64,000 nucleotides of DNA, from NCBI GenBank assembly GCA_963575745.1, contig CAUYUJ010000001.1, positions 2,914,001 to 2,978,000 on the forward strand, read 5' to 3'. Below are positions 2,042 to 64,000 of the stretch, piece by piece; positions within the stretch are counted from its first letter, which is position 1, and each line of letters begins with the position of its first letter. Position numbers and translations under genes: made by a program. Under the pieces are notes generated by a model that had not been told where the DNA came from, did no database searches, and saw nothing but the letters and a program-made list of their open reading frames with translations. Origin of the DNA: Prorocentrum cordatum. Lineage: Eukaryota.

Positions 2042-2134
2042 GGGGGCCCGTGAGGGACTGTTTTACAGCGCGCCGCTGCCGACCAAACTCCAGAGCGCAA
2101 GCAATGCAGGGGGCGCCTGGCAGGGATTAAAAGA

Positions 2135-7846: not shown

Positions 7847-8083
7847 TTCATAGTGCATCTCTCCAAGGGGTCTAGATGTACCCAACGGTTTCAAGCGGGT
7901 CTCCAGTGGCAGACCCAGCTTTTGCCAACATGGCAACGGAATTCAACATCACGCATCCATTTATATAAGTGTACATCTATATACAGGATGCGGCATTGTT
8001 GCTTCATGGTTCGGGAAACTACGCACGGATCACAAGCGTTCGCTCATTCACTAAACAGTCATTCCGGAATTTAATTTACATTG

Positions 8084-10158: not shown

Positions 10159-10922
10159 GATGTCTCAGGCGAGGCGCTGGTTTCAGCACTCCCAGAGGGG
10201 GGCCGCCAGGGGGTATTTCACGGGCCCGTTCTTCGCGCCCAGATCGGGAGGATGTCTCAGGCGGTTTGCCTGATTCGGTGCTCAACATCCTCCTCTTTCG
10301 GAGCAGTCTCCGAGGATGTCTCAGGCGAGGCGCTGGTTCCAGCACTCCCAAAGGGGGGCCGCCAGGGGGCATCTCATCGGCCCGTTCGCGCCCAGATTGG
10401 GGGGATGTCTCAGGCGGTTTGACTGTTTGGGTGCTCAACAGCCTTCTCTTTCGGAGCAGTTTCCGAGGATGTCTCAGGCGAGGGTGCTGGTTGCAGCAAT
10501 CCCAAGGGGGGGCGCCAGGGGGTATCTCACGGGCCCGTTCGCGCCCAGATTGGGGGGATGTCTCAGGCGGGTTGCCTGGTTGGGTGCTCAACATCCTTCC
10601 CATTCGGAGCAGTTTCCGAGGATGTCTCAGGCGAGGTGCTGGTTTCAGCACTCTCAAGGGGAGCCGCCAGGGGGTATCTCATTGGCCCGCTCGCGCACAG
10701 ATTGGGGGGATGTCTCAGGCGGGTTGCCTGGTTGGGTGCTCAACGTCGTCCTTCTCTTTCGAAGCAGTTTCCGAGGATGTCTCAAGCGAGGTGCTGGTTG
10801 CAGCACTCCCAAAGGGGGGGCGGCAGGGGGTATCTCACAGGCCCGTTCGCGCCCAGAGTGGGGGGATGTCTCAGGCGGTTTGCCTGCTTGGGTGCTCAAC
10901 ATCCTTCTCTTTCGGAGCAGTT
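10159..10922. repeat. ~154-bp tandem repeat, 5 units
   Basis: Units start gatgtctca(g/a)gcgag at ~10159, 10315, 10468, 10621 and 10776; GATGTCTCAGGCG recurs once inside each unit. Confidence 0.95.
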
Positions 10923-12049
10923 TTCTTTCGGCGCCCTCATAGGTGTTCAGAGGAAAAGACAGAGAAAGAGGAGGACACTGAGGAGGAGAAGGAGGAGGAG
11001 GAGGAGGAAGAAAGAAGGAGGAAGCAACTAGCTAAAGTCGTCGTAGTCGTCGGCGTCTCTCCCGGCTTCGTCTTCCAAACGAGTTCGCTGACACTCAGAT
11101 ATTGAATAGGACAATGCCTTCTACCGAAACATGCCATCACTATGCTATGCGCATATGAGGATCTCCGCGTCGAGTAATTCTCTTCCGGGAACACCGCTTT
11201 AGCAGCCACGGATTTGCCAGCCCTCGCCCAGCTTCTGACTGGTGGTTCTGGACTTTCCAGTGGGCGCCTGTGCCCACCTCGTGCCCGCCCTGTTGGCTGT
11301 CTGGCGGTTCTGGACTTGTGCCGCATAGTTTGCACCGCTTTTCCCCCTCTTCTAAAGGTTAATCGACTTCCCCCCCCCCTGCCGAGGCCAGACCCGACCA
11401 ACCCCCTCCGCGCACTGGCTTGTCATGCACAAAACGGCGCCATGCCGCCGAAGGGCACATGTGCGGCTTCCGACTTCGTATGAGTAGCGTGCCGCTTCTC
11501 GCGGTGATCCCTGCGTGTGGTTGTTGCTGATTCTTCCTCCTCTTCCTCCGCTTCTGCAGCAGGGCTTCTTGGGGGCCTCTTGAAGACCTCGTTGGCGGCC
11601 TCTGGAAGCCGTTCTGGAAGCTCCCAGGGGCTTCGGGAGAACCCTCTGGGCCTTCTTGGGGGCCTCTTGGGGCCTTCGCGGGGGTCTCGGGGACCATCCC
11701 GCGGGGGAGGGCTTCAGGAGCCCCTGCGAGTGGCCCTCTCTCTCTCTCTCGGGCTGCTCTTGGGGCCCCCTTCGCGGCCTTCTTGGCCGTCTCCTGCGAG
11801 CCCCACGGGGTCCTTCCGGGGCGCCTCTCGGGCCGCCTCCGGGCCTCCCGGGGATGCGCGGCAGATTCTTGTTGCGCGGCTGGATGCGCGGCAGATGCTT
11901 GAGGCCACCCCCCCGTCGCGGGTGCGGGGTGGTCCTTCCTAATCGCCAAAAGTCTGCCGCCACCGTGCCTCTGGGCACGGAGTGGGCGTGTCCTCAGGTC
12001 CTTTGCCTAAATCCTCTGAGCCTCAGTCCTCCATCCTGAGGAGTCTAAG

Positions 12050-12700
12050 GCCCTGGACCCCAATTTCCAAAATCTCTTACGGCTTCCCGCGTGCCCCCTG
12101 GGGTCTGGCGCATCTTGTCGCACGAATTGTTCGGGCCCGTGCGGGCCCGAAGACGGGCCAAAAGGGCCCCACGCGGCCTCCAAGACGCCCAGCGAGGGCC
12201 CCCAGACACCCAAAGATCGTTCCAAAATGCCCAAGATGGCATCAAGATGGCCCAAGAGGCCTCCAAGATGCCCCAAGAGGCCTCAAAAGAGGCGTCCCAA
12301 GAGGGCCCCAAGAAGCAAACATCATACATGTTCGACTGTTTTTCGAAAGACTTTGGCGTTCGCGCCTTTCCGGGATTCCGATCGCTCCAAGACGGCCCAA
12401 GAGACCCCCAAGACCACCCCGAAACGGCCAAATAGGCATTCAAGAGGGCTCCAAAACAGCCTAAAAGCATTCCCAAACGGCCCAATAGGTACCCAAGACA
12501 GCCCAAATGGGCCCCAAGACGGCCCCCAAAGGGGTCTAACAGAGGGAACGTCAACTGAAAATCCGAGCCTTCCGCCCCAAGATGCCTCAAGAGGCCCCAC
12601 AACGGCCCCCAAGAGGCCTCCAAACTGCCTCCAAGAGGCCCCCGAGAGGCCTCCCACGAGATCCCAACAAACATCCAATAGGCTTCAGATCCAAAACCCA
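12050..12700 (+). repeat. CCAAGA-rich dispersed repeat
   Basis: Dense ccaaga/ggcccc motifs, same family as 54300-54860. Confidence 0.75.
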
Positions 12701-12797: not shown

Positions 12798-14357
12798 TCA
12801 AGCAAAGGACGCCATCGCAACGGAAGACGTGGAACGACTAGGATCAAATGGGTACGCAAGCTGATCAAGCTGTGTACGCGTCGCACATGCGTGGAGAGGT
12901 GTGCTCACGTCTTGGTGGTCGTCCTCCCCCAATAGACCTCCGACGGCAAACCCTGCCAACCGTAAATGCTTCACGTACACGTTCAAATACTCAAGGCCGG
13001 AGCCAGTATGGCCATGAACAACTTTCAGCTGAACAGGACCGAACACAACCCAGCGCGGATGTTCGATCGATTTCTGCAACACGCTGTACTGATAACCCCC
13101 AAATTGTTTGGCATCTGCCCATTTGCCCGTGACGTTCACTTCCTGGAAATACATCTCTGCACAATGTCCACCCGATCGGAACGCATCGGCTTGTACGCGA
13201 AGCATTGCTCCTTCAGACCCCACTCCACGTGGGATATTTATCAGGACATGCCTGCCTGGCAGCATCAAATCGAACCGCTCGCCATGAACGTTTTGAAGGT
13301 GGGGGTCCCCAGTGGCAGCCACGTCTCCGCCGGCTCCAGCCGCCGCAGTCGGGTGTGGCGTCGGCCAACCCAGAGGGTACGTCGGGCTGGGCGTCGGACT
13401 GGGCGTCGGATAGGCCGTTGGGAAGGGCGTCGGGAAAGCTGTCGGAAAGAACGTCGGGAAGAGCGTCGGGAAGGGCGTCGGAAAGGGTGTCGGGAAGGGC
13501 GTCGGACTCGGCGTTGGGTTCGACGTCGGGTACGGCGTCGGGCTAGGCGTCAACCCCGCGGCTGAATTTGGCGGACATGATGGCGTGCCGCTCCCTGTTA
13601 CAAGGGTCGCGCTTCCCGCTCTGTATGAATTTAAATCTGCCGCGGAATAATCAATCAAGGGCGACGCTGAGGTCGACATCCCGTTCATCGCATTGTTGAT
13701 GTCAGAAGCAGACAACCCAGATGACCACAACTGCACAGAATACACCTTGCCAGGTAAGTTTTCATCTTGGGTGGACTTGGCGAGAATCGTTATATCGTCG
13801 TTGAAGTTGGTGATCGCCTCGACATATAAGTGAATCCACGGGGCATATGTAGTCGAGGCAGAGCTGACAGCGGAAGCCAGGCCAGCAATGTCGGTGGCAA
13901 TCCCATTCACATAGAGTGTGTCCTTCCAGTAGCTGCCTTTGTGAAGGCCAGGAAAATTAAGGAACGACAGCCACCCCTTGGTGAGTCCATCGCGTGCGTC
14001 GAAGATGTACTCCCAGTCGTAGCCCCCATCTCTGTACGGTGCAAACCACATGGACAGTGCCCGAATATTGGTGACATATGGCAGTTGGATGTAGCCGCTC
14101 TGGTATGCAGAGACCTGCATGTATTGGCATGATGCCATCCCAGCGGTTTGGTTAATCGCATTGTGGGCAAACGGGCTCAGCAGCATGACGTCTTTGCCGC
14201 CAGACTTCGCGTCTTGACGCGGAGCTGGCACCAATGGCGTCGTTGACGCATCGAAGGCGATTGCGTCGCCTGTCGGTGAACTGAGGGCGTTATTCCCCCT
14301 GGGGGACCGGATCCCGATTACAGGCGGCACTAAAAGAAGTGCCAACCGCAAGACCAT
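12798..14357 (-). CDS. Intronless secreted protein: signal peptide, LamG/ConA-like domain, (PTPF)n stalk, C-terminal GDPH (VWD-like) domain; probable retrogene
   Basis: 519-aa ATG-to-TGA ORF; hydrophobic N-terminus [23 protein letters not shown] and [18 protein letters not shown] resemble LamG-like folds; Pro/Thr repeats; [17 protein letters not shown]. Confidence 0.88.
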
Positions 14358-14428
14358 TGAAAAGGTGAGGTATAAGAATCAAGTGTAGTCTTTCTTTCAG
14401 AGTAGACCTTTCAGAAGTATCAATGGAG

Positions 14429-14450
14429 CGCGAGCCAGAATGGCGACGGA
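14429..14450 (-). other. Relict dinoflagellate spliced leader upstream of the 519-aa ORF
   Basis: TCCGTCGCCATTCTGGCTCGCG vs DinoSL TCCGTAGCCATTTTGGCTCAAG: 18/22 ungapped, sense orientation, 71 nt before the ATG. Confidence 0.8.
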
Positions 14451-15000: not shown

Positions 15001-16905
15001 AACCTCTTCTCCACGCCAGGCGAATAGTTGTATGAACGCTCCGCACAACAAAACACATCGCCAGATATAAACGATCAGGGCTGCCATCATCTCCGCTGCG
15101 CCTCCCAGAAGCTCACGAAAATGGCGACAATTGCGCAGTTCGTAGCCTCCCATGGAGCTGCGAGGTCTCGGCTGGATCCACGTGGCCCCCGACTCCGCTG
15201 GACCTCTCAGGATCTCACGAAAGTGGCGACGGTTGCGCAGTTGGCAGCCACACAGAGAGCTGCGAGGTCTCGTCTGGGTGCGCGTGGCCCCCAACTCCAC
15301 TAGACCTCTCAGGAGCCTACGAAAGTGGCGACCCTTGCGCAGTTCGCAGCCACACAAGGGAGCTGCGAGGCCTTACATGATTGCACGTGGCCTTCGACTC
15401 AGCTGGACCTCCCAGGAGCCCACGAAAATGGCGACGGTTGCTCAGTTTGCAGCCACCCGGGGAGCAGCGAGGTCTTGTCCGGGCGCGCGTGGCCCCCGAC
15501 TCCGCTGAACCTCCCAGGAACACACGTGAGTGGCGACGGTTGCGCAGTTCGCAGCCACCCAGCGAGCAGCGACGAGCCTCTCAGGAGCACGCGAACATGG
15601 CGACAATTGCTCAATTCACACTCCCCCCGAGGGGCTGCAAGGTCCGCGGCTGGGTGCGCGTACTCCGCGACACCGCCGTGCCTCCCAAGAGCCCGCGAAC
15701 GTGGCGACAGCTGCGCAACCCACAACCACCCAAAGAACTGCGAGGTCTCGGCTGGGCGCGCGTACTCCGCGACTCCGCCGTACCCCCCAGGAGCTCACGA
15801 ACGTGCCGACAATTCCGCAGTTCGCAGGAACCCAGGGAGCTGTGAAATCTCAGCTGGATCAACGCAGCCCCCTACGTATTCCGCCGTGCCCCCAAGAGAC
15901 CGCGACACTAGCGACAATTGTGCTATTCGTAACCACCCACGGAACTGCCGAATCTCGGCTGGATCCGCGTATTTCGCTACTCCGCAATGCCTCCCCAGAG
16001 CACGCGAACGTGGCGATTGGCCATAGTTGATCAATTCCCAATCCCCGTGGGGAGCGGCGGGGCCTCGACTGGATCTACGCCCTCCGCTGTACTCCGTGCC
16101 CCTCCCCAATAGCCCACGACAATGGCAACCGTTGCGCAATTCGCAACCTCCGAAAGACCTGCGAAATCTCGACTGGAACCGCGGGCTCCCCTACTCAGCC
16201 GTGCCTCCCAGGAGCCTACGAAAGTTGCGACGGTGGCGCAGTTCGCCGCCTCCCAAGGAGCTGCGAAGTCTCGGCTGGATCCACATACTCCGCCACTTCG
16301 ACGTGCCCCCCCCCCAGGAGCCCACGAGAATGGCGCCAACTGCGCAATTCGTAATCCCCCAAATAGCTGCGAATCCGCGGCTGAATGCACGTGCTCCGCT
16401 ATTCCGCCGTGCATCCCAAGAGACAGCGAAAATGGCGACAGCTGCGCAATGCGCAACCTTCCACGGAACTGCGATGCCTCGGCTGGGCCATCGTACTCCC
16501 CTACCCCGCCGTGCCCCCCCCCCCCCCCCCCCCCCCCCAGGAGCCCACGCACGTGGCGACAAGTACGCAATTCGCAACCGCCCAAGGAGCTGCGAAATCT
16601 CGAGAGGGGATCCGCGCACTGCGCTGCTCCGCAGTGCATTCCAAGAGCCCCCGAACATGGCGACAAATGTGCAAGTCGGAACCCCGCAAGGAACTGCGAG
16701 GTCTCGGCTGGACCCGCGTACTCCGCTACTCCGTCGCGCATCCTAATGGTGACGCTTGCGCAGTCCACAATCCCCCAGGGAACTGCGAGTCCGCGGCTGG
16801 GTGCGCATACTCCGCGACCCCGCCGTACCTCCCAAGGGCCCGCGAAAGTGACGACCGTTGCGCAGCTCGCAGCCACGCAGGGAGCAGCGCAGGAGCAAGC
16901 ATGAT
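15001..16905 (+). repeat. Satellite-containing element, copy 1 (unique head + degenerate ~100-120-bp tandem array + tail)
   Basis: Unit resembles ccgccgtgcctcccaggagcccacgaaagtggcgacggttgcgcagttcgca...ctgcgaggtctcggctgggtgcgcgtactccgcgac; head and tail shared with copy 2. Confidence 0.85.
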
Positions 16906-17000
16906 GACGGAGAGGCGGGGGGATGAGCTGCGACTGCAGTGCCCGATCCAAAACGACAACCCAACACAAGAGGGCTGGGAATACAGTCATCGGCCTGACC

Positions 17001-17155
17001 TAAGGAACGATAAATAAGGAACGAAGCCCCTTTCTTCCAAGGAATAACTCATAGGGAACGATTAACAAATAATCCATACCGCATAGGGAACGATACATAA
17101 CGCATGCAAGCCTAAGGAACGACCGAGCCCCTTTTGAAAAGTAAGCGTTCCTTAT
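17001..17155. repeat. TA(A/G)GGAACG motif cluster: 5 direct copies and 1 inverted copy
   Basis: taaggaacga, taaggaacga, tagggaacga, tagggaacga, taaggaacga, then cgttcctta. Confidence 0.8.
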
Positions 17156-17190
17156 TCAAGCCGCTCACTGTAATTGCGCGAGGCGAACAC

Positions 17191-19300
17191 AACCCCTTCT
17201 CCACGTTAAGCGAATATTCGTAGGATCGCTCCATACAAAAGAACACCCCGCCACATATGCACGACCAGGGCTGCCCCTATCCCCTCTAGACTTCCCAGAG
17301 CCCACGACAATGACGACAATTTCGCAATTCGCAACCGCCCACGGAACAACGAAACCTCGGCTGGAACCGCACACTCCGCCGTGCCTCCCAATGACCCACT
17401 AACGCGGCGACAATGGCGCAATTCGCAACCACCCACGGAACTGCGAAGCCTCGGCTGGATCCGCGTGCCCCCCAGTGCCCCCCCACATGCGCCCACGAAC
17501 GTGGCGACACTTGCACAATCCACAGCCTCCCCAGAGGCCTGTGAGGTCTCGGCTGGGTGCGCGTGGTCCCCGACCCCGCTGGACTCCCCAGAGGCCACCG
17601 AGCGCGGCGACGGCTGCGCAATTCGCAACCTCCCCAGAGGCCTGCGAGGCCTCGGCCGGGCGCGCATGCTCCCCGACCCCGCCGCGCCTCCCAGGAGCAC
17701 GCCAGAGTGGCGGAGGACACTAGGAGGAGGGGGAGGAGGAGGAGGAGGAGGAGGAGGAGGAGGAGGAGGAGGAGGAGGAGGAGGAGGACGAGGGAGGGGA
17801 AGGGGCAGGAGGAGGAGGAGGAGGAGGCGGAGGAGGAGGAGAAGGAGGAGGAGGAGGAGGAGGACAAGGAGGAGGAGGAGGAGGACGAGAACGAGGAGGA
17901 GGAGGAGGACGAGGGAGGGAGGCGGACGAGGAGGAGAAGGATGACGAGGAGGAGGAGGAGGAGGAGGGCGAGTGTTAGGCCCCCCAAAGGAGCTGCGACA
18001 TACCGGATGGGCGCACGAACTCCGCGACTCCGCCGTGCCTCCCCAGCAGCCGCGAAAGAGGCGACAATTGCGCAATGCGCAACAACCTCGGACCCGTATA
18101 CTCCGCTACACCGCCGTGTATGCTAGGACCCCCCGAAAGTGGCGACGGCTGCTCAGTTCGTAGCCGCAGCCCCCCAAAGGAGCTGTGAAGTCTCGGCTGT
18201 GTGCGCGTACTCCGCGACTCCTCCGTGCCTCCCGGGAGCCTACGAAAATGGAGACGTTTGCGCGGTTCGCAGCCCCCCCAGAGAGCTGCGAAGTTCCGCC
18301 TGGGTGCGCGTACTCCACGACCGTGCCATGAACCCACGAACGTGGCGACCGTTGCGCCGTTCGCAACCACCCAAAGACTTGCGAGGTCTCGGCTGGGCGC
18401 GCGTACTCCGCGACTCCGCCGCTGTGTGCGCGGTCTCCGCGAAACGCCCACGAAAGTGGCGACAATTGCGCAGCCCGCACCCCCCTCCCCTCAAGGAGCT
18501 GCGAGATCTCGGCTGGAGATGCGCACTCCGCGACCCCGCCGTGCCTCCCAGGAGGCCCCGAAAGTGGTGACGGTTGCGCAGTTCGCAACCCACCAGGGAA
18601 CTGCCAAATCTCGGCTGGGTGCGCGTACTCCGCGACCCCGTCGTGCCTCCCAGGGCTCCCCGAAAGTGGCGACACTTGCGGCCTCCCAGGACCTCCCGAA
18701 AGAGGCGACGGTTGCGCAGTTCGCAACCTCCCCAAAGAACTGCAAGGTCTCGGCTAGGTGCGCGTACTCCGCGACTCCGCCGTGCCCCCAGGAGCCCACG
18801 AAAGTGGTGACAGATGCGCAAAACGCAACCCCCAAAGAGCTGCGAGGTCTCGGCTGGGTGCGCGTACTCCGCGACCCCGTCGCTGTGTGTGCGTCGTCCG
18901 CGACCCCGCCGTGCATCCCAGGAGCCAGCGAAAGTAGCGACCCTTGCGCACTTCGCAGCCTCCCAGCGAACTGCGGACCCTCGGCTGGATCAAGAAACTC
19001 CGCGATTCCGCCATGTCCCCCAAGAGCCAACGAACGTGGCGACGACTGCCCAGTTCTCAACTCTCAGAGAGCTGCGAGGTATCGGCTGGGTGCGCGTACT
19101 CTGCGACCCAGCCGTGCCTCTCAGGAGCCCACGACAATGGCGACGGTTGCGCAATTCGCAGCCCCCCCCCCCAACAAAGGGGCGACGAAATCTCGGTCGG
19201 GTGCGCGTATTCCGCTGCTCCGCCGTGCCTCCCAGGAGCCTTGCGAGAGTGGCGACAGCTGCGCAGTTTGCAACCACCCAGGGAGCAGCGCAGGAGGAGG
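17191..19300 (+). repeat. Satellite-containing element, copy 2, interrupted by (GGA)n at ~17722-17965
   Basis: Head aaccccttctccacg...gcgaata...cagggctgcc matches 15001-15085; tail cagggagcagcgcaggag matches ~16878-16895. Confidence 0.85.
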
Positions 19301-23960: not shown

Positions 23961-24259
23961 GGCACGAGGAAGCCGACATCACTCATTTTACCAACATTTT
24001 GGCTCCATTTTGGCCTCCTGTTGGGGGGGACCGTAATTAAGGACCCCCCCTTCGTTGACCGATATCATCCAAGATGGCCCCAAGAAGCGCCCAGGAAGCC
24101 CCAAAAGGCCCCAAGATGGCCGCAACAGGCCCCCAAGAGGCCCCCAGGAGGCCCCCAAGAGGACCCCGAGCGGCCCAAAGAGGCCCCCCCGAGGCACCCA
24201 AGACGCCGAAAAGCCCCTCAGGACGGCCCTCTACTCGCCTGGGCGTCGTTTCTGGATGG

Positions 24260-47587: not shown

Positions 47588-47959
47588 CTCCTCCTCCTCC
47601 TCCTCCTCTTCGTCTTCTTCTTACATTAGTATTATGCTTCTTCTTCTCTTTCGTACTAAGACTGTTATTAGTATTATTCCTCTTCCTCTTCCTCCTCCTC
47701 TTCCCCCTCCTCCTCTTCCTCCTCTTCCTCCGCCTCCTTCTCCTCCTTCTCCTCCCCCTCGTTCTCTTCCTCCTCCGCCTCCTCCTCCTCATCATCCTCC
47801 TCTGGCTCCTCCTCTTCCTCTGTCTCCTCCTCCTCCTCCTCCACTGAATTGATATGAGTATTATTATTCTTATTATTATTATTAGTATTATTATTAGTAT
47901 TATTATTATTAGTTTTACTACTATAATAATAATTATTATTATCATCATCATCATCATCC

Positions 47960-47996
<37 letters not shown>

Positions 47997-48053
47997 TATT
48001 ATTATTATTATTATTTTTAGTATTTTTATTAGTATTATTATTATTAATAGTGA

Positions 48054-48103
<50 letters not shown>

Positions 48104-48560
48104 TCAGTATTATTATTATTATTCGTAACATTATTACTACGGTTAGTAGTATTGATATTATTATCTTTATTATTAGTACTATTATTTGGTAATTCCATGT
48201 ATAATCTGATTATCGGTTGTATTATTTGTAGTCGCTTTCGTGTGGGTATCCATATCCGTATTATTACGTTGTTTCATCTGATGCTGCTTATAGCTAGTCT
48301 GTTTCATGTTCCTCTTCCTCCTCTTCCTCCTCCGCCTCCTGCTCCACCTCCCCCTCTTTCTCCTCCTCCTCCACCTCCTCCTCTTCCTCCTCCTCTTCTG
48401 TCTCCTCTGACTCCACCTCCGCCTCGTCCTCCTCCTCCTCGTGCTCCTGCTCCTGCTCCTCCTCTTTCTCATCATTCCCTTCCTTCGTCCATTCTCCTCT
48501 CATCGTAGTTATCATTCTCCTCCTCCCTTGTCATTAGTTATCCTTCCTCCTTCTCCTTTC
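47588..48560. repeat. Compound microsatellite (TCC/ATT/CAT/AGT)n
   Basis: Successive trinucleotide runs. Confidence 0.95.
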
Positions 48561-54299: not shown

Positions 54300-54860
54300 C
54301 AAGATGGCCCAAGACGGCTCCAAGAGCGCCTCGGAGAGCCCAAGATGAGCTCCAAGATGGCTCAAGATAGCCTAAGATGACTTAAGATGGCTCCCAAGAA
54401 GCTCGAAGACGGCTCCAAGAGGCTTCCGAGACCGTGGAGGCCTCCGATAAACCAACATCCTTCAAACACCTAAGGAACATCAATGAGTTGCGCATCGTCG
54501 ACCATTCGCTTTCGATAGCCTGCCGAGGCCTCGAGATGGCTTCAAGATGACCCAAGAGGGCCCCAAGAGAGGCCCAAGAGAGGCCCAAGAGAGCCCCAAG
54601 AGACCATGTGTTGGGCTCCCGAGGGGCAGGGCTAATTGGGAACCCCATCTTTTTTGATCGGTGCCCTCCAAGATGGCTCCAAGAGCGTTCCCAAGGCTCC
54701 CAGGGGCGCCCCAAGAGGGCCCCAAGAGGCACCTAGACGGCCCCAAGAAGCGCCCAAGAGGCCTCCGAGAGGCCCCCAAGAGGCTCCAAAGAGGCTTCAA
54801 GAGGATCCCCGCGGCACAAGAGATGCCCCCCAGACGCTCCAAAAGCCCCCCCCAAAAAAA
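54300..54860 (+). repeat. CCAAGA-rich dispersed repeat
   Basis: Dense ccaaga motifs. Confidence 0.8.
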
Positions 54861-56444
54861 AAACAAGAGGCATCCGAGGAGGCTCTTCTGATCGTTATGC
54901 CCCTCCTCATCATCCGTCTCCCCCTCCTCCTCCTCCTCCTCCTCCTCCTCCTCCTCCTCCTCCTCCTCATTATGCGCCTCCGGCTCTCCCTCTTCCATCC
55001 CCTCTCTCCGCCCACCTCCTCCTCCGCCGCCTCCTTCTGTTTCACTTTCCAAGGGAAACCACAGGGGACCCCAAGAGCCTTTCTAGAATCGTATGCATCT
55101 TCTGTCCACCCTCGTTATTCCTGCTCATTCTCCTCCTCGTCCTGTTCCTCCTTCTCGGCCTCCCCCTCCTCAGTCTCCCTCCTCTCTCCTCCCCCTCCCA
55201 CACTTCCTCCTCACCCTCCTGATCCTTCTACTCCTCATTCTCCTCCTCCGTATCAGCCTACTGCTCTTCCTCCCTCCTCCCATTCCCCCCCCTCCCCCAC
55301 CTCTCCCTTCTCCTTCCTCCCCCTCCTCCTCCATCCTTCCCCCTCGTCCTCCTCCGACGACGACCATGATTTCTCCTCGTTCCTTCCCCCTCCTGTGGGA
55401 CGACGGTTTCTCCAGCCTTTTGTTCCTCTGCATGCTCGCTCACTTCCCTGATCAGGGCAACCGCCTGGGCATCGTCTCTGGATAGGCTTCTTGCCTTTCC
55501 ATGTCCGATGGCATGTTACAGGACGCTCAAAGACAACCGAGACGCTAACTTCCTCGTCGTCGTCGTCGTCCCCCTCCTCCTCTTTTTTCTCCCCCCTCTA
55601 CATCGCACCCTCCTCCTCCTTCTTCTCCTCCCCCTCCCCCCTGCAATACCTTGCAATGCCCTGCAAACCAGACCACAAAAGCGCCCCCAGAGCGTCCGAA
55701 GAGCGTCCCAAGCCTTTGTTGTCGTCATCGGCGTCGTCTTCGTGGTCGTCGTCTTCGTCGTCGTCTTCGTCGTCGTCGTCGGGTGCGTCGTCATTGTCGT
55801 GGTCATCGCTGTCGTCGTCGTCGTCGCTCTCTTCCACTCTCATCCCACCGCCGTCTCTTCCTCATCCTTATCCGCCGTCCTCCTCCCACTCCTCCCACAC
55901 GGAGGGAGTAAAAGGAAGCAAGTAAGAATTAGGAGGAACAAGAGGAGATAAGCGAGGGCATGAGGAGATACGCGCGAAAACCATGACAGCCGGCATGCTT
56001 CGCAAAAGTTGCTGTTTTGGGATGGGCTGGTGGGGATACGCGAGATTGGCATTACTTTGCGTTGCTTGGCAATGCTTCGCGTTACTTGGCAGTGCTTGGC
56101 AATGCTTCACATTTCTCAGCATTGCTTGCCCCGGCAGCCCCGAGCAACCCAGGCAAGCAGGCAACGGAGCATCCAGGGCAAACGAGCAATTGGGCAACCT
56201 CGAGCAACCCCAGGGCACGCTGGGCAACTGGGCAACGAAGCAACCCAGGGAACGCCGAGGGCCGCCTCCCCTTAGAGGCCTGCGCACACACTGGTTTCTT
56301 TCACAAGCAAGATAGAGCCTATTCAGGCAAACCAAATTTGGAAATCGCTGTTAGAAAGTGGCGCCCGCCTGGGGGTGCTTGCCTTCTGGAAACATGACGC
56401 ATACATCCCCTGGCTTTCTTGCCCTTCCCCTCCTCCTTCTCGCA

Positions 56445-57384
56445 TTCTCCTCCTCCTCCTCCTCCTCGCACTCCTCCTCCTCCTCCTCCTCCTGCCGCAC
56501 CTCCTCCTCCTCCTCCTTCTCCTCCTCCTCCTGCTCCACCACCACCTAAAGCCGTCTCAGCATCATCATCATCGTCATCAGCATCAGCAGCAGCAGCATC
56601 ATCACCATCACAATCATCATCCTCATGCCTCCTCCTCCTCATCATCATCGTCATCATCAGCATCAGCATCATCACCCGCATCAGCTTCTTCATCACCATA
56701 ATCAGCAACAGCATCATCAACATCATCATCACCATCAACAGCATCATCAACATCATGGTAACCACTTCCACCTCCATCATCATAATCATCAGCATACCCA
56801 TCAGCACCATCAATATCAGCATCAACATCATCATAACAATTACCAGCAGTACCACCAGCACCATCACCACTACACACATCATCATGACCATCATCAGAAG
56901 CGTCACCATCATCATCACATTCATCAACCTCATCAGTATCGGCATCCTCACCATCAGTATCATCATCATACCCATCGTCATCATAACGACAATCATCGTC
57001 ATCATGAGCGTCATCATCATCATCGTAATCGTCATAATCATCATAATCACTATCATTTTGCTACTCATCATCAGCATCATCACCACGATCACCAGCATTA
57101 TCATCACCATCGTCATCACGGTCATCAGCATCACCGTTACCAGCATCACAATCCTCATTACCACCATCATCGTCATCATCGTCATACTTATCATCGTCAG
57201 CATCATCATCGTCATTATCACTACAATCGTCAGCATCAGCATCATTATCATCTACATCATCATCATCATCATCATCTGACTCGTCATCCTGAACATCATA
57301 AGCATCATCATCCTAATCAGCATCAGCATCAGCACCAGCATCGACATCATCATCACCACCATCATCCTGTGAATCATCATCATC

Positions 57385-57418
<34 letters not shown>

Positions 57419-57643
57419 TCAGCATCATCATCATGGCCTCCTTCTCGCCCTCCACATCGATCTCATCCTTCACCTCATGACGAGGACGAGCGGCAAACGA
57501 GGAGGAGCAGGAGGAGGAGGGGGAGCAGCAGGTGATGAGAACGGATGAGGAGCAGGGGGAGGAGGAGGAGGAGGAGGAGGAGGAGGAGGAGGAGGAGGAG
57601 GAGGAGGAGGAGGAGCAGGAGGAGGAGGAGGAGGAGGAGGAGG
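56445..57643. repeat. (TCC)n, long degenerate (CAT)n and (GGA)n microsatellites
   Basis: Direct runs; the (GGA)n abuts the LINE 3' end. Confidence 0.95.
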
Positions 57644-57768
57644 ATTTGTTTTGGTCACCTTGGACCTCACCTCCACCCCTCTCAGCCCTTCGCACGAGCC
57701 TCCTTGGCCGCTACACGGGCACGGAGGGCATCCAGGCCTGAAAGGGGCGACGCACACGCTGGCGTCTG

Positions 57769-60700
57769 CTAGGGTCGGGACGCTACGGCATGCGCTCGCG
57801 CCTCGACCCTCGTGAGCGGAGCCTCGAGCTCCGCGCAAGAAACGGGTACATCGCGCTTCGGGTGCAGGCCTCTCCTGAGCCTTCGAAGCGCAGTGGTGCC
57901 TGCACTGCTCCTGTCGCTGTCTCTTAGGGGCCTGAGACAACGTGACAAGAGCATGTGCAGGCGGTGCTGGGCGTAGTAGCCACAGCTCATGCAGAAAAAC
58001 AACGGACTTGGCTCGTCCCCGACTTGCGTGCTAGCCAGAACGTGGCCATGTTCTGGCGAGATGGTCAGTAGCTCTTCGACCATCCTAGGGAAGCCCTCGC
58101 AGCCCACCGTGGGTCTGTCTTCCATGGCTCCTGCATAAAACCTGAAGCAACTCGAACACCGATGGCCCCACAGCCAGGTGTCCCAAGTGTGCCAACCCTC
58201 GGCACGCTTAAACACTTTCTGCTTCTTGGCCCGTCGAGGAGGCCGAGCGTGGGTGACCCTGGGAAAAAGCGGCAGAACGTCCGCCAAAATCCGCGCCACC
58301 GTTTCGATTCTCTCGATCGAGCTCTTCACCTCGTCCCACTCGTTTTGGCTAGCTTGTGGGTGCAACAAAATCGCTTGCTTGGCTTCATGATCCGCACGCC
58401 TGTTGGCACGACCTATGGACCGCTGAGGCTCTTCTAGCATATCTATCGTGGCAGAGTCCCTGTGTGCTGGGGTCCAGACGGCTGGGGCATACGCATCTCG
58501 TTCCATGTGCTGCAGAGCTCCGCGCCTGAGTCCAGCATACTTGTGTTTATGACTCAACTGAGAAACCGTGCTGGCATTGTGAAGCTTGGCGGCATTCATA
58601 CAATCACTGTAGCAGGCTTGCCCATGCTTGGGCACGAACATCGGGAGCAAGGCCAGCTGAAGTTGCTCTGCTGCCTGGCTCGTCTGAGGAAGGCTCGGCC
58701 ATACGGGGCATTTTGCAGCTCTCCGTCCCTTCCCATGAACACCCATGAAAACGCTGCTCGTGATAGATCTCGAATCTGGTGCGGGAAACACGACCCGTCC
58801 CCCGCCACATTCAAATCAGTAGTGTCGAAGTCCGCCCAGTCCATTCGCCGACCCTCGGCGCTATACAAGTAAGGCTCGTGCTGGTCGGACAAAGGCGGCA
58901 TATCTTTGACAGGGTTGACAAACTTTAGACCAGCGGAGAAGTTGTGCCCCCCTTCCCTCGCCCTCTGAAAGAAGCTGTCCTTCACCCCCGTACTAGTCCT
59001 AGCCGCCGAAGCCTCGGGGCTGGCACAAAAGTAAATCCCATGGGCAACAGAACCTGGCTCCCCGCACAGCGGGCAGCAACCTGTCGAATGATAACCAGCC
59101 TGCTGCGCCCGATCCTCGGTCCAGAGTCCGTCGCAAAAGACCGTGTTGACCAAGTACTTGCCTTGGGCATTCAGTCCTATGCCTCGGAGTCTAGGCTGAG
59201 TGATACGTCGCAGCGGCCCGACGCAGACGCGATCTCCTACAGGCCACCCGAGCTTCTGTCCCAGGACCCGCTCGTGGTGTCGTTGCACCCCTTCTTTCAA
59301 GAGCGCGGAGATCATGGCAGGGGAGTTGTAAAGCAGACTCAACTCGACTCCCCTATCGTCGGCCCACATCAAAAACGAAGTCGATTTCCACCCGATGCGA
59401 AAAAGCGACAACACCATCCGACTGATAGGACCCCTCGTCTTCCCCCATTTCCACCCCTCAATTCCTTCCTGGGAGATGGAGTCCCACATGCTGCGAAGCT
59501 GGGGCAGCGTGAAACTGGCCGTGCACGGCGCCGTCGTGGTGCTCCACGCAACGGCTGCCCAAGCGAGCGCAGGAGCGACCATGCTCCTCCACATCGGATC
59601 GCCTAACAGAGCTGTCTTGGCAGTGGGTGAAACCCCTCCATGACACGGCGCCTGATAGGAAAGCATCACCCCTCGCGCACGCTTAAGTTCAGCGTCAGAC
59701 ATGCCAGTCACCGTATCTCCAAAACTGACCGCGGGCTTAACGCCAGCGGTGTAAATCTTACCGATTCTAGTTTTGTCCCTCGGCAGAGCTTTCCTATACC
59801 TCTGGAGCCTTCGGCGTCTGCGAATCATGCCCGCAACTCGGGCCTTGCGTTTGCCAAGAGCTTGTTTGGTGCTGCGTTTCACCCCGGGAGCTAAATCGAC
59901 CCCGAGCGAGACCACGTGGGCCCCGACCGTCCCAGCCAGCGTTCCGAGCCTGCGTCCAACTCGCAGCGACAAGTCGGGGGTGGAGCCAAAGGTCATGAGT
60001 TTATCGGGGGCCAAACCAACACCTAACTCTTCCTTAAAGACACGTTCCAGGTCCTCAGCTGCCTGGCCGAGAACTTGGACCACATGGTCCGCCGCGCCGT
60101 ACGCGCTGACGGTGTCGTCGTCGACGTGCGAAGCAAGGTCAACAGCAGGATTCCTGGCCACGAAGCCGTCGAACGGGACCATAGCATAAACTTTAACGTT
60201 GGTATCATTCAGGCAGGATCCTGCTGGCAACCCACACTTCGCGTACATCGGAGAAAGGCTGTGGTCCGAGCCAAGCCGCAAAACCCGAGGCCCGCGCCAA
60301 AAATTGTAGGTCACCTTGACCACGATAGGGTTAAGGCCCGCCTGCAGGGAGCGATCCCTAAGCGTAGTGAGCCTGAACGATTCATAATACTTGGTGCCAT
60401 CCCAAGAAAAACCTCCCGTGACACCCCCTTCGGCCACTTGGGCCTCCGCTTTGACCGCCTGCCTCCACATTTCAGCCTCCGCCGGCTTCCCCGCCCCAAA
60501 AGCCCAATACTTGCGCGGGTGCGCGTCGCAATACGGGAGCAACTGCGGTCGCCTGAGCTTTTCCCACAGGCGAACAGGAGAGGCACAGAGCAGGACAGGA
60601 CGCAAACCCCCTTTTGGCTTCTCGAGGAGGGGGAAAAACATCCAATACAGGGCCTTCGGGTAGACCCCGATCTTTTCAACAGTTTGAAACAGGCAACTGA

Positions 60701-62426
60701 GCACTTCGAGCCCCGCGTCGGGGAGCAAGCTGAAGTGCCGCACATGTATGCCGTCAAGTGACTGCGCAGTGTGTGGTGAGAACCCTCTACTGGCAGCTCG
60801 AATGTCATCAGGCTTGAGCCTGTCGAAACAATTTCTGTCCAAAGCCTCCAGAGGTTCTGGCATGGACGTCGCTTCCCAGAATTTACCTAACACGTTGGCT
60901 TCATTCGCGAGCAGCTTGCGCGGGTCGGCCGAATAAATCCCAGGAGCCGTTTCAATCACGGTCGGCATCCAAGCGCTTTTGTTCCGAGTCAGTTTATGTA
61001 TCTTGCGAGCTGATCCCGAGAGGGCTTCCGTCTGCCACTGGTCCCAGCTCACCTTAGCTTTATTGTCGAGGCCAGCGCGAGCTTCGGCAAAATCCTCCTC
61101 CCAATCATCAAGCGCTTCGGTGCATCGATCTATCCACCCAGACAGATTTGCCGCTCGCTGAGGCCAAGACTCCGCCAGACGGCGCGCCGCTTGCACAGTG
61201 GTGTCGAGTCGCACAGCTCGGCCTTCAGCTTCAAAAGGCTGCTGAACTATATGTACTAAGTTCCTGCAGGCCTCGAGCTCGGCGTGGTCGACGAGGCCGG
61301 CCTCATAAATACGAATGCTGGTCTGTTGAAGGTCTCGCATGGTCTGCTGGAGCCAAATCCACCCTTCCCAGACTAAAACCTCCTCCTCGACCTTCCCCTT
61401 CGGGGGGAAGACAATCGAAACCCACTTAGCACGCAAAGGCTTGCCCCTGCCCCCTCTGGACTTTAAAGTCACCCCCGCCAGATTTTCGAGCTCAACTTCC
61501 ATGACATCCGAAAATCGTTTCCAAGCCTCATTCAGCAGAGTCCAAGCAAGAGTGACAGAAGCACTGCTGGCGCACATGTTGGCCTCCTCGGCCAACGTCC
61601 TGGCTAATCTCCAATCCTGGGGCTTTGGTGACGGACCAAAAGGGACCTCACAGGGAATACGTTGGTGGGTCTGATAAACAAGCTGTTTGAGTTTTATCGC
61701 ACCTTGCTTAAAGATAAGCTGCACTGGCCGATGAGGTCGCTTGGGCCAGTTCTTCACAACATCGGTCTTGTCGACCATCTTGGCTACCGCTGGGGACACA
61801 ACGAAGAAATCGATCCGCGAGTGGGCCTTCGCCGTCACACAGGTTTCGATCTTCGGCTGGAGGATCAACATATCGGCTTTCCTCAGTAACCCCGTAAACT
61901 CGATAATCGTCGGCCCCAGGTTCCAATCAGCCCCGAAGATGGCCATGTGGGTCCCCTGGAGCGTTTCCCCGATCAGTTTGAGCAGCTCGAGGTTTCGCTT
62001 CGACAGCCCCTCGGTGGTGTACAAATAAGCACAGCCAGCCAAAATCGGCGGCCACCCTGGTATGTCTAACATCGCAAAAAGTAGACGGTGTTCGACGAGT
62101 ACCCCTCGCGGTAGGTGTGGAGGCCAACGAAGTCCGATACTCGTCCTGGCAAAAATCGCTACTCCAGCCGACGTCTGCCCCGCATCGCAGGGTACCGAAG
62201 GTGTGTAGAGCATATGCCATCCCATACCAAGAGCTGTTGCAATCTTGTCACCCACATCTTCGGCCGTGATCCCGATCTCCTGGGCGAGCAGAACCAAGGC
62301 TGAGCTCCGCGCAAGACGTTCCGAGAGCGTGCCCCAGCTGTTACCGTCATAGGACTCGCACACAAACAGGAAATTGTCTGCCGTGGGGTCGTCGGCAATC
62401 GGAGTTGGCGGACAGCCTGACCCCAT
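57769..62426 (-). pseudogene. LINE ORF2 (APE endonuclease, RT, Cys/His knuckle, RNase H) with one frameshift near 58710
   Basis: LLAQE, GADWN, SRIDFF, HRPV (APE); AQSLDG, EKPKGGLRPV, DGTKYYE, GLPAGS, SHVDD (RT); CPLCG..HGIYFC; AGDGS in the long frame then AAEQL, YSDC, WTPAH, NRRAD in frame 57769-58791 (RNase H). Start codon uncertain. Confidence 0.88.
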
Positions 62427-62685
62427 GGCCGAAATCTTGAAACCAGTGCACAGCGGCTGGCCTGCGAACGGGGCCAGACTAGAATGCTTAACGTGATCTC
62501 GGTCCCTCCCATGATACGAGCATCTGAGTTCGTCACTCGAGACGCCCGAAGGGAGGATCCGCTCCTGGTGTGAAAAGGTGCCGTGGGAAAGCTCCGCTCG
62601 CCGAAGGCTGCTGCTGTCGTGCCGCTGCACTCCCGAAGAAGTGCTCAGAACACGACGTCCATGTAGTGCATCATGATGTGCGCCG

Positions 62686-63732
62686 TCAAAGATGCCCTGG
62701 AGCTGGTGGCGCCGCCGTCGGTACTGTTCCCGTTGAAGGCGCAGCTCCTGGCGAGAGCACCCGAACCTTCTTGAACTTGGCGGCCACCAGCGTTTGCACG
62801 ATAACCCGTTTATCGCTTCGGTGCTGCTCCCAGAAACTTTCAGCCTCTGCGGTGGACACGAAAGCATCATCCATTTGAGCATCACCAGAACCATCATCCG
62901 CAGCTTCAGTACGCGGCTCCTGCTTCGTCCTGGACTGGGAGTAGAGCTGCGTGAACTGCTTGAACGCGTCCGTCTGGATGAGCGTTTTGACTTCGTCTTC
63001 GCCTTCCAGCAGATGGTCAGGAATAGTGAAATCAAAATCGCCACCACCAGCGACCAGAGGAGACTGCTTGAGCTGGCCCCTGATATCGTCGATCTCGGCC
63101 TTGAGCACGATCTGCTTCGCCTGAAGCTCGTCCCTCTTGGCCGTAGCATCCTTGATCGCCTTCTCTTGCTCCTCGGCTTCCTCGACTGCCTTTCTGAGTT
63201 GACTCTCCTTGCGCGCCAGCTTGTGACCCAAGTTGATGTGCTGCGTAACGTCACTCTTCTGGCCTTCGATCTGCTTGCGCCCATCACGGAGTTGGGCCTC
63301 AAGAGACTTGCGGGCTTCATCCATGTACTCACTCTTGCATGCTTTGATCGCCGTTTCCAACTCGTTGGCCTTGGCGACCAAGGCATCAGGTTTCTCATCT
63401 TTATCATCAGCGCCACTTCCCCTCCCACCACCGTGACCGTTGGACGGGACGTCCTTGGTGGGCGGGGTTTGCTTGGTGAGCTGATCCAACTGCTTCTGCA
63501 TGGCGGCAAGCGCCTTGGCGAGTCCGACATCCTTGGGCTGCCCACGCGGAGCACCACCGCCACCACGAGCAGGAGGGTTGCCACCACCAAACGACTTGGC
63601 GCGCTGAAGGACGTGTGCTGGTGCCGCTTCGCCGCAGCGGCACTTGAGGCGACACGCCCAGTTACTCGTTCTTCCACAGGACTGACATCCCCAGAGAGGA
63701 AGTTTCGGTCCTTTGACCATGTCATTGTTCAT
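62686..63732 (-). CDS. LINE ORF1 protein: N-terminal RanBP2-like Zn finger and coiled coil
   Basis: 348 aa; WGCQSCGRTSNWACRLKCRCG followed by Lys/Glu/Gln/Ala-rich helical region. Confidence 0.85.
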   Translation of the reverse strand: MNNDMVKGPKLPLWGCQSCGRTSNWACRLKCRCGEAAPAHVLQRAKSFGGGNPPARGGGGAPRGQPKDVGLAKALAAMQKQLDQLTKQTPPTKDVPSNGHGGGRGSGADDKDEKPDALVAKANELETAIKACKSEYMDEARKSLEAQLRDGRKQIEGQKSDVTQHINLGHKLARKESQLRKAVEEAEEQEKAIKDATAKRDELQAKQIVLKAEIDDIRGQLKQSPLVAGGGDFDFTIPDHLLEGEDEVKTLIQTDAFKQFTQLYSQSRTKQEPRTEAADDGSGDAQMDDAFVSTAEAESFWEQHRSDKRVIVQTLVAAKFKKVRVLSPGAAPSTGTVPTAAPPAPGHL

Positions 63733-63838
63733 CGGTGCTCCTCCAGGAGCTCACTGGAAGAGAATCACTGTCGTACCGAGCCAAAAAGACTCGCACCAGC
63801 TGCTGCCGCTCTGAAGAAAGCTGGTGCAAGCCCAAAAA

Positions 63839-63860
63839 CTTGGGCCAGAACGGCTGAGGA
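63839..63860 (-). other. DinoSL-like 22-mer at the 5' terminus of the LINE
   Basis: TCCTCAGCCGTTCTGGCCCAAG vs TCCGTAGCCATTTTGGCTCAAG: 17/22 ungapped, exactly at the junction with (TCC)n. Confidence 0.65.
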
Positions 63861-64000
63861 GGAGGAGGAGGAGGAGGAGGAGGAGGAGGAGAGAGGAGCA
63901 CCCCATCGTTCCCAATCACACTCCCTTGTCCTCCACACCCTCTCTCCTCGACCCCGTCCGCTCGCGGCGGGATGACCGGCGGCGCCTGCAGCAGCGGGTC

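Follow-up and report, generated by a model that had tools for sequence, protein, structure and literature searches.

How does a retrotransposon come to begin with a sequence that resembles the spliced leader (SL) of its host, and why does it lie inside an array of trinucleotide repeats? Both questions are raised by a 64,000-nt stretch of the dinoflagellate Prorocentrum cordatum (contig CAUYUJ010000001.1, positions 2,914,001 to 2,978,000; hereafter the window), which harbors on its minus strand, at 63860..57645, a retrotransposon that lacks long terminal repeats (non-LTR), or long interspersed nuclear element (LINE), with two open reading frames (ORFs). The original prediction for this locus, made from the letters alone, was that the RNA of the element is excised from host transcripts by trans-splicing and so may need no promoter of its own, that it is copied to the cap into TCC repeats, and that the TCC at the 5′ end of the SL supplies microhomology for 5′ joining. 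Our analysis supports a partly different answer. The whole is probably best explained by a superfamily of LINEs headed by the dinoflagellate spliced leader (DinoSL), of which the window copy carries an inherited relic and has inserted into a microsatellite. That the first 22 nt of the element derive from the spliced leader, and that an SL head is a trait of this LINE lineage, is well supported.

The first bases of the element (63860..63839) match what we take to be the DinoSL consensus at 17 of 22 positions, with the mismatches G4T, T5C, A10G, T13C and T18C; the three that fall in the last 17 nt are all transitions, as had been predicted. A score of at least 17/22 is reached at only three of the 127,956 window positions on both strands, all of them minus-strand sites (the best plus-strand score is 15), and a score of at least 14/19 is likewise reached at three. 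The match in the element is placed exactly on the boundary between repeat and unique DNA, and the ORF1 start codon (63732) follows 106 nt downstream of the 22-mer, close to the predicted spacing of about 105 nt. The other two top-scoring sites, 14450..14429 and 7940..7919 (both minus strand, both 18/22), look like ordinary relics and lie elsewhere in the window, where no canonical SL with three or fewer mismatches to the 21-mer was found. The source genome carries SL relics, in keeping with dinoflagellate genomes.

The SL origin of the 22-mer is borne out by two relatives with SLs at the same place. The first, L001, was the sole locus returned by a metagenome scan with the ORF2 protein alignment; since it was found through protein similarity and not via its SL, it provides independent confirmation. 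Positions 335-356 of L001 read TCCGTAGCCATTCTGGCTCAAG, a 21/22 match to DinoSL located 150 nt ahead of the ORF1 ATG. L001 ORF1 is 40% identical to that of the window copy (E 4e-77) and the start of its ORF2, which has frameshifts, is 61% identical; the 5′ untranslated regions (UTRs) of the two elements are alignable only across the SL 22-mer, at 18/22. An open frame, with no repeat, runs into the SL of L001 from the 5′ side. The second relative, L222, derives from a search of public contigs for the exact SL 21-mer with T or C at position 13, which gave 21 loci in prokaryotic genome bins, where SL-bearing contigs are evident contaminants, and 119 loci in IMG/VR, for a total of 155 distinct sites; the 86 ORFs of at least 300 aa downstream of these sites were then scanned with Pfam. 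In this 9096-nt contig an (AG)n-type repeat (1-116) is followed by CCGTAGCCATTTTGGCTCAAG at 117-137, identical to DinoSL at 21 of 21 positions, by an ORF1 of 406 aa with a significant Zn_ribbon_RanBP match, and by an uninterrupted ORF2 of 2536 aa in which Exo_endo_phos (36.7 bits), RVT_1 (43 bits) and RNase_H (25.9 bits) all reach the curated cutoffs. L222 ORF2 matches the hidden Markov model (HMM) of the window family with an E value of 1.2e-122. On its 3′ side the contig reads ..GGGTAAAAAA, a short A-run, followed by (AG)n (9005-9074) and unique DNA. All three superfamily 5′ ends that are readable (window copy, L001 and L222) thus begin with an SL, in lineages whose ORF2 proteins share only 24-61% identity and whose UTRs are unalignable.

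The unit behind this head is a slightly damaged copy of an autonomous two-ORF non-LTR retrotransposon of the apurinic/apyrimidinic endonuclease (APE) type. It has a non-LTR-type reverse transcriptase (RT), an N-terminal AP-like endonuclease, and ORF1 followed by ORF2; it has no LTRs, and a BLAST search of the element against the window gave the self-match only, with no terminal repeats and no second copy in the window. Read on the sense strand, the order is unique DNA, (TCC)n, SL-like 22-mer, leader, 5′ UTR, ORF1, ORF2, 3′ UTR and (TCC)n, in a window whose G+C content is 56-66%. The limits of the element are 57645..63860, the 5′ limit being uncertain by 5 nt owing to repeat continuity. ORF1 encodes an N-terminal CCCC zinc finger of the RanBP2 type, a coiled coil and a C-terminal domain; Pfam gave no match on ORF1 of the window copy; the zinc finger can be aligned to that of L222 ORF1, which Pfam recognizes as a significant Zn_ribbon_RanBP. 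An open stretch of 1710 codons makes up the first part of ORF2, after which the reading moves to another frame. The ORF2 start codon is uncertain, as the frame is open from 63728 with ATGs at 62897-62867 and 62426; the approximate domain positions are 61782-62327 for APE, 59910-60722 for the RT core and 59025-59075 for a zf-RVT-like CxxC..H..C motif, with RNase H beginning at about 58800 in the first ORF2 frame.

The prediction of an APE-RT-RNase H LINE holds at the level of the family profile. In the window copy alone, Exo_endo_phos scores 21.7-22.4 bits, under the 24.5 cutoff, and RVT_1 gave no Pfam match at E ≤0.01. A word-indexed search with ORF2 returned P0004 (60% identity, 1730 aa, spanning the whole of ORF2) and P0005 (42%), and an exhaustive search returned 4007 representative proteins with E ≤1e-3, 392 of them with E ≤1e-30. 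Among 25 aligned members, Pfam recognizes RVT_1 in 16, Exo_endo_phos in 12, zf-RVT in seven and RNase_H in five. The family profile, with the domain order APE, RT and RNase H, matches in the PDB L1 ORF2p (2.4e-13), R2 (2.5e-9), an L1-type endonuclease (2.7e-8; ExoIII/L1-type endonuclease matches extend from 2.7e-8 to 1e-6) and RNase H (2.8e-6); a PDB search with a three-sequence profile gave nothing relevant. The human L1 ORF2p as best PDB profile match is the sole lead for a placement within L1. Dinoflagellate-type genomes contain a large LINE superfamily with great divergence among its members, and the element is one of these; further superfamily contigs occur in contaminated metagenome-assembled genomes (G003:C67, G006:C78 and others) as internal ORF pieces without ends.

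Two lesions qualify the predicted “near-intact” state of the window copy. The second ORF2 frame (P0003) is 56% identical to P0004 over 335 aa (E 2e-123), and a contig from run X1 (depth 19.6 of 19.6) has 10 extra bases behind 58717 that restore both the frame and the spacing of P0004; relative to that copy, the window copy has a 10-nt deletion within RNase H that shifts ORF2 into the P0003 frame. In addition, 29 codons ahead of the ancestral TGA, a Gln codon has given way to TAG (57771..57769). At the 3′ end, ..GGTGACCAAAACAAA (57645) is followed directly by TCC repeats, and the predicted lack of a poly(A) tail is confirmed, with only AAAACAAA at 57652..57645. Short A-runs therefore close both complete copies (AAAACAAA in the window copy, AAAAAA in L222), and a target-site duplication is indiscernible within a microsatellite.

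L222 harbors an N-terminal extension of ORF2 of about 1190 aa without a Pfam match (1358-4900, plus strand), with a 207-nt tandem duplication at 4371-4784, and ORFs longer than 2300 aa are also found in other superfamily members (L238). Two further SL-associated loci were considered as LINEs. In L019 a perfect SL, with GT after it, precedes an ORF1 and an ORF2 with an APE; the locus has no match to the family HMM and is kept as a second kind of SL-headed LINE fragment. L109, in which an APE ORF lies 2.2 kb behind the SL in AT-rich DNA, is not counted.

We next consider the microsatellite setting. Tandem repeat analysis (TRF) confirms (TCC)n directly on both sides of the window copy; the perfect run of the 5′ repeat spans 63856-63891, its final 5 nt overlapping the start of the SL-like 22-mer, and the 3′ repeat contains perfect runs at 57558-57615 and 57617-57644. 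L222 is flanked on both sides by (AG)n. Both complete copies (2/2) therefore lie inside homopurine/homopyrimidine arrays, which make up 3.7% of the window, where all microsatellites comprise 7.0% and perfect TCC/GGA runs of at least 12 nt 1.4%. Among the 21 SL sites in genome bins, six are SL RNA genes, in which the SL is followed by GTAC, and two have a short upstream sequence; these eight were excluded. Of the 13 sites kept, in GC-rich contaminant contigs, three adjoin perfect repeats, namely (TCA)n in L005, (AG)n in L016/L222 and (AGAC)n in L018, and a fourth, L002, adjoins an imperfect (TG/CG) tract; the background in those loci is 1.1% of 30-nt windows holding such a repeat. The SL relics of L005, L018 and L002 are not LINEs, and several of these relics continue CCATT.., as second-generation relics do. 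From these sequence contexts a microsatellite preference of the LINE superfamily appears plausible. Any such preference is not specific to TCC, and the single copy in (TCC)n is suggestive at most.

Several observations weigh against this picture of SL-headed, microsatellite-embedded elements. The first five nucleotides of the window 22-mer (TCCTC) are indistinguishable from the repeat, which reduces the independent match to between 14/17 and 14/19. The SL of L222 is present by construction, having been the basis of the search, while its LINE and its microsatellite flanks are independent of it. Only three superfamily 5′ ends are readable. When the family proteins were compared by tblastn with the 140 exact-SL loci, no further member turned up, L001 in the same database being the sole match; L016/L222 was missed as well, since the sequence searched stopped short of its conserved domains. 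No microsatellite adjoins L001 or L019 on the 5′ side, such that repeats are found at two of four LINE 5′ flanks, or two of three within the superfamily. The sense-strand flank is pyrimidine-rich in the window copy and purine-rich in L222, and because flank polarity differs in this way, one simple endonuclease specificity is disfavored. Finally, contigs break at repeats, which may inflate the frequency of an SL beside a repeat in short contigs. Protein scans of viral contigs with a three-sequence family alignment and with the L222 RT, and of genome contigs with the same alignment, returned no relative.

The flanks are the ground on which the strongest alternative stands, which is that the association is passive: the elements have no target preference, microsatellites are abundant and tolerated sites, the copy and its flanks may be a DNA-level duplicate, and only the SL relic is meaningful. 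The 7.0% of the window that is microsatellite, the repeat-free 5′ flanks of L001 and L019, and the differing repeat unit and polarity of the window copy and L222 all fit this explanation, which has been proposed for Drosophila Waldo-A/B near CA repeats, according to the part of PMC3812793 that treats them. It fits less well with each of the two complete copies having one repeat on both of its sides, which for two independent insertions at 3.7% has a chance of about 0.0014 if the backgrounds are alike, or with three to four of 13 SL-relic sites adjoining repeats against a background of 1.1%. We regard passive association as rather unlikely.

The second alternative is close to the original prediction: fresh SL-trans-spliced RNA is copied in each cycle, an endonuclease specific for (GGA)n/(TCC)n opens the target, and TCC microhomology serves 5′ joining. 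An SL-like head adjoining (TCC)n, with TCC on both sides in a window where perfect TCC/GGA runs are so scarce, is what this scheme leads one to expect, and the perfect or near-perfect SLs that head L222 and L001 speak for it as well. The copies of the element in public sequencing runs speak against it. We compared contigs from run reads over the element itself, leaving out the repeat flanks, and found parts of the element in four runs (X1-X4). The 353 contigs of run X1 fall into four similarity classes, with 71 at 99% or more, 138 at 95-99%, 98 at 90-95% and 46 below that; run X4 has 333 contigs, mostly less than 95% alike, and X2 and X3 have 29 and 26, respectively. The family is multi-copy, with subfamilies, in more than one sample. 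Five of the 22 SL positions of the window copy differ from DinoSL despite ORFs with only two lesions and the 71 of 353 X1 contigs that are at least 99% alike, and a diverged X4 contig reads TGGCCCAAG-TTTTGGGCTTGC, with the C at SL position 18 common to diverged copies. Five changes in 22 nt could not have accumulated after insertion in a copy with ORFs this complete, and the diverged X4 copy keeps the TGGCCCAAG variant; we conclude that the degenerate head was present in the template RNA and is an inherited relic.

Fresh copying of the cap is accordingly not borne out for the window copy, and the other parts of the prediction fare unevenly. When relatives are examined, SL heads are indeed present in L001 and L222, and TCC flanks are not: L222 lies in (AG)n and L001 has a nonrepeat 5′ flank. 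TCC at the SL as a source of microhomology fails for L222, in which (AG)n..GAC is joined directly to CCGTAG, and (TCC)3 or longer is absent from the 25 nt upstream of every one of the 155 public exact-SL sites. Fresh-SL copying with TCC targeting is thus unlikely as a description of this element; a life cycle that is promoterless, copies the cap and is specific for TCC stands unproven and is partly contradicted for the window copy.

An inherited relic raises the question of what follows it. The 22-mer opens an 85-nt leader that contains two SL-core-like TTTTTGG motifs (63838..63832 and 63787..63781), against 0.007 expected and 11 in the window on both strands, and a hairpin with 9-bp arms in which 63827..63819 pairs with 63801..63793. 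Contigs from X1, X3 and X4 match the leader above 63776 and diverge below it, and an X2 contig breaks at 63790; the leader thus behaves as a module, seemingly common to units with different bodies. By analogy with DinoSL relics and with the 77-nt promoter leader of trypanosomatid LINEs, we conjecture that the relic has turned into part of a 5′ control region of the subfamily. A caution is that the leader fold beats shuffled sequences only modestly (z = -2.15). A scan of the leader with Rfam gave only far sub-threshold matches, on the repeat, and the leader pattern had no matches in viral contigs. The degenerate 16-mer GCCRTTCTGGCYCAAG gave 78 matches in viral contigs, which were judged to be chance, with random-looking upstream bases and no LINE.

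The remaining alternatives deny that the SL belongs to the element at all. If the likeness to DinoSL were accidental, this would be an ordinary LINE with an unrelated 5′ UTR; five of the 17 matching bases could be TCC repeat and the window lacks a canonical SL, as this would predict, yet the rarity of such scores in the window, the placement of this match exactly on the repeat boundary, the near-perfect SLs at the same place in two relatives and the two extra TTTTTGG motifs in the leader make chance very improbable. That the SL belongs to the insertion site, the LINE having landed downstream of a host relic or targeting SL RNA genes, is hardly credible despite the SL-relic host retrogenes in the same window (such as 14450..14429 with its 526-aa ORF) and the GT after the SL in L019, since each 3′ flank has the microsatellite of the 5′ flank in place of the remainder of an SL RNA gene, the leader is covered by contigs of four runs and its SL-like end persists in a diverged copy, as expected of a repeated unit, the six public SL RNA genes continue GTAC where the LINEs do not, and the endonuclease is APE-type and not restriction-like.

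On the preferred reading of an SL-headed superfamily with an inherited relic in the window copy, the life cycle might run as follows. Judging from the structure of the copies, the element RNA would go through host mRNA processing, receiving DinoSL by trans-splicing at one end and a short A tail at the other, and target-primed reverse transcription proceeding to the very 5′ end would write the SL into DNA. In active lineages such as L222 and L001 the SL is kept perfect, presumably by renewal from SL RNA; a perfect SL in the intact L222 fits renewal in each cycle. Renewal would most simply proceed by re-splicing at the terminal AG of the relic, and would need this AG because no LINE head shows the SL + CCATTTTGG tandem of recycled genes. 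A role of (TCC)n plus TCAG as polypyrimidine tract and acceptor for re-splicing was considered and dropped as a general mechanism, the upstream sequence of L222 being purine-rich (AG)n. In the window subfamily the SL copy would no longer be renewed, and a degenerate relic would head a conserved 85-nt leader that probably now serves as the 5′ control region of the subfamily, much as DinoSL relics have been proposed to act as TTTT-box promoters. A (TCC)n array already in place would have received the window copy, with cDNA synthesis primed by the nicked (GGA)n strand at ..CCAAAACAAA, and landing in microsatellites would recur across the superfamily without a fixed repeat unit. A wider version is possible, which we offer tentatively: a dinoflagellate-wide LINE superfamily may cap its RNA via SL trans-splicing, renew the SL each cycle at the AG of the relic, prefer microsatellites and write SL-tagged mRNAs, including host retrogenes that likewise often lie next to microsatellites, back into the genome, with the relic of the window subfamily having become an 85-nt control leader independent of renewal.

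Each part of this picture has known counterparts. Slamovits and Keeling reportedly described DinoSL-relic retrocopies (“recycled cDNAs”) in 2008. Like these, the elements described here have a genome-encoded DinoSL at the 5′ boundary of an intronless retroposed unit (17/22 in the window copy, 21/22 in L001 and 21/21 in L222), with the relic some 100-150 nt ahead of the start codon. They differ in that the unit is a retrotransposon encoding its own APE-RT-RNase H, and in that the LINE heads, unlike recycled genes, carry a single SL without the SL + CCATTTTGGCTCAAG tandem. The accepted route for host retrogenes is reverse transcription of trans-spliced mRNA, as stated in the relevant parts of PMC7245778 and PMC5585692. 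In the sections of PMC5585692 on this subject, Song et al. (2017) propose the TTT(T/G) core of the relic as a basal promoter, call the source of the RT for dinoflagellate retroposition unknown, and report enrichment of the Gene Ontology (GO) term “RNA-dependent DNA replication” among SL-relic genes; Ty1/copia is favored as the RT source in a passage of PMC6050394. Because “RNA-dependent DNA replication” is enriched among relic-bearing genes, such elements were probably seen in bulk by Song et al. without being described.

Among LINEs, the best PDB match is human LINE-1 ORF2p (8uw3, 8sxt; E 2.4e-13), which shares the order APE then RT. The present elements differ from it by extra RNase H and zf-RVT-like modules, another type of ORF1 and very low identity. 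SLACS, CZAR and CRE are trypanosomatid LINEs that insert in SL RNA genes and use a restriction-like endonuclease. Unlike these, the elements here have microsatellite 3′ flanks, an APE-type endonuclease and no GTAC after the SL. L1Tc and ingi of trypanosomatids have an APE-RT-RNase H coding capacity. The pertinent portions of PMC1874656 and PMC8190864 describe a shared 77-nt leader of L1Tc/ingi, Pr77, as an internal RNA polymerase II promoter that yields unspliced transcripts. On that account the likeness is that of a LINE in an SL-trans-splicing organism with a short leader (77 versus 85 nt) common to related elements; the difference is that Pr77 is not SL-derived, whereas the leader here starts with an SL relic and relatives carry perfect SLs.

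Microsatellite-inserting APE-type LINEs are represented by Kibi in (TC)n, Koshi in (TTC)n, Waldo in (ACAY)n, Mino in (AC)n and Dong in (TAA)n, as given in part of PMC3812793. The elements here resemble these, as far as described there, in being APE-type LINEs with one microsatellite on both sides and no long poly(A), and the (AG/TC)n that harbors L222 is the target of Kibi. They differ in that the listed elements are animal elements for which those passages of PMC3812793 mention no SL head; (TCC/GGA)n is absent from the targets listed there, and one copy per lineage is seen here. SymbioLINEs of Symbiodinium are, from the portion of PMC5890265 (de Mendoza et al. 2018) that concerns them, two-ORF LINEs of many divergent lineages, some of them active, and the term “spliced leader” has no occurrence in the main text of that paper. 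The present elements are two-ORF dinoflagellate LINEs like SymbioLINE as described there, and unlike SymbioLINE-Dnmt, which in that description has a DNMT in ORF1, they encode a RanBP2-type zinc finger and a coiled coil in ORF1. A literature search, with supplements outside its scope, found no description of an SL-headed LINE. What appears from that search to be new is the combination of an autonomous LINE lineage with a host SL head that is recurrently embedded in microsatellites, the parts being known already.

The coordinates of the element and its flanks are collected in Table 1.

Table 1. Features of the SL-headed LINE and its (TCC)n flanks, listed in sense-strand order with window coordinates.
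Feature	Position	Strand	Basis or remark
5′ flanking (TCC)n	63856..63898	-	TRF: GAG period 3, 14 copies, 95% matches
DinoSL-like 22-mer TCCTCAGCCGTTCTGGCCCAAG, first bases of the element	63839..63860	-	17/22 to DinoSL
Remainder of the 85-nt leader	63776..63838	-	Two TTTTTGG motifs and hairpin
Remaining 5′ UTR (43 nt) to the ORF1 start codon	63733..63775	-	
ORF1, 348 aa plus TGA (62688..62686), ATG at 63732	62686..63732	-	Translation
ORF2, first frame	58718..62685	-	Translation
Site of the 10-nt deletion, inside the RNase H domain	58717..58718	-	Versus run X1 contig
Second frame of ORF2, with the RNase H core and the Cys/His-rich C-terminal region	57772..58717	-	
Premature in-frame TAG, Q at that position in P0004	57769..57771	-	
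Former final 28 ORF2 codons and ancestral TGA (57684..57682)	57682..57768	-	Versus P0004 C terminus
37-nt 3′ UTR, last bases AAAACAAA (57652..57645)	57645..57681	-	No long poly(A)
3′ flanking (TCC)n, GGA on the plus strand, about 48 units	57499..57644	-	TRF

Other repeats of the window include (TAT)109 nested between two TCC arrays (47678-48464) and, at 56429-57644, three arrays side by side: one of CCT, one of (TCA)n that is 878 nt long, and the GGA array of the element. On the plus strand an 11-nt unit (about CCCAAGAGGCC), for which 21-22-nt units are an alternative reading, forms arrays at 310-387, 12229-12660, 24069-24207 and 54300-54808, and long tandem repeats at 15091-18908 and 10159-10923 have units of about 102/205 nt and 153/308 nt, respectively. 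About 50 nt beyond the relic TCCGTCGCCATTCTGGCTCGCG at 14450..14429 (minus strand) begins an open frame of 526 aa (14378..12798, minus strand) with a Pro/Thr-rich linker, which is probably a host retrogene.

A C for T at SL position 13 (..CCATTCTGG..) is found in four of the six best SL-like sites, five of which are in the window and one in L001; the four are 63860, 14450 and 13018 (minus strand) of the window and L001:335-356. The same C is present in two of the 155 exact-21-mer public sites, and a literature search for the C13-bearing 15-mer found no paper; C13 could mark an SL variant particular to the lineage or an error that recurs in copying. The base preceding the SL is A in 136 of the 155 public sites. 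Most of these sites (134/155) are in IMG/VR loci (L023-L141, mostly labeled “GVMAG”), the majority AT-rich (rounded G+C 0.2-0.3), and the ORFs behind their SLs encode DUF4116 repeats, DEAD/UvrD helicases, YqaJ, Bro-N, DNA polymerase beta and FtsJ; these loci are giant-virus-like bins with many genome-encoded spliced leaders. One IMG/VR contig (L089, minus strand) opens with DinoSL, and the 788-aa ORF behind it gives a match to viral RdRP_1 (4.9e-7); the contig is an SL-headed, RNA-virus-like sequence.

Roughly one fifth of dinoflagellate genes are reported to be DinoSL-relic-tagged retrocopies. A LINE lineage that begins with the SL would mean that element RNA enters the trans-splicing pathway and that its RT is able to copy SL-capped RNA to the end, leaving a signature that is the same as that of the retrogenes; the relatives with perfect SLs point to the apparatus by which dinoflagellate mRNAs are returned to DNA. 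This would be a transposon whose 5′ end is set by an RNA-processing step of the host and not by a promoter of its own, and the window subfamily would represent the next step, in which a relic SL has been fossilized in the leader of the element itself. Landing in microsatellites, if true, links the repeat richness of these huge genomes with their rampant retroposition.

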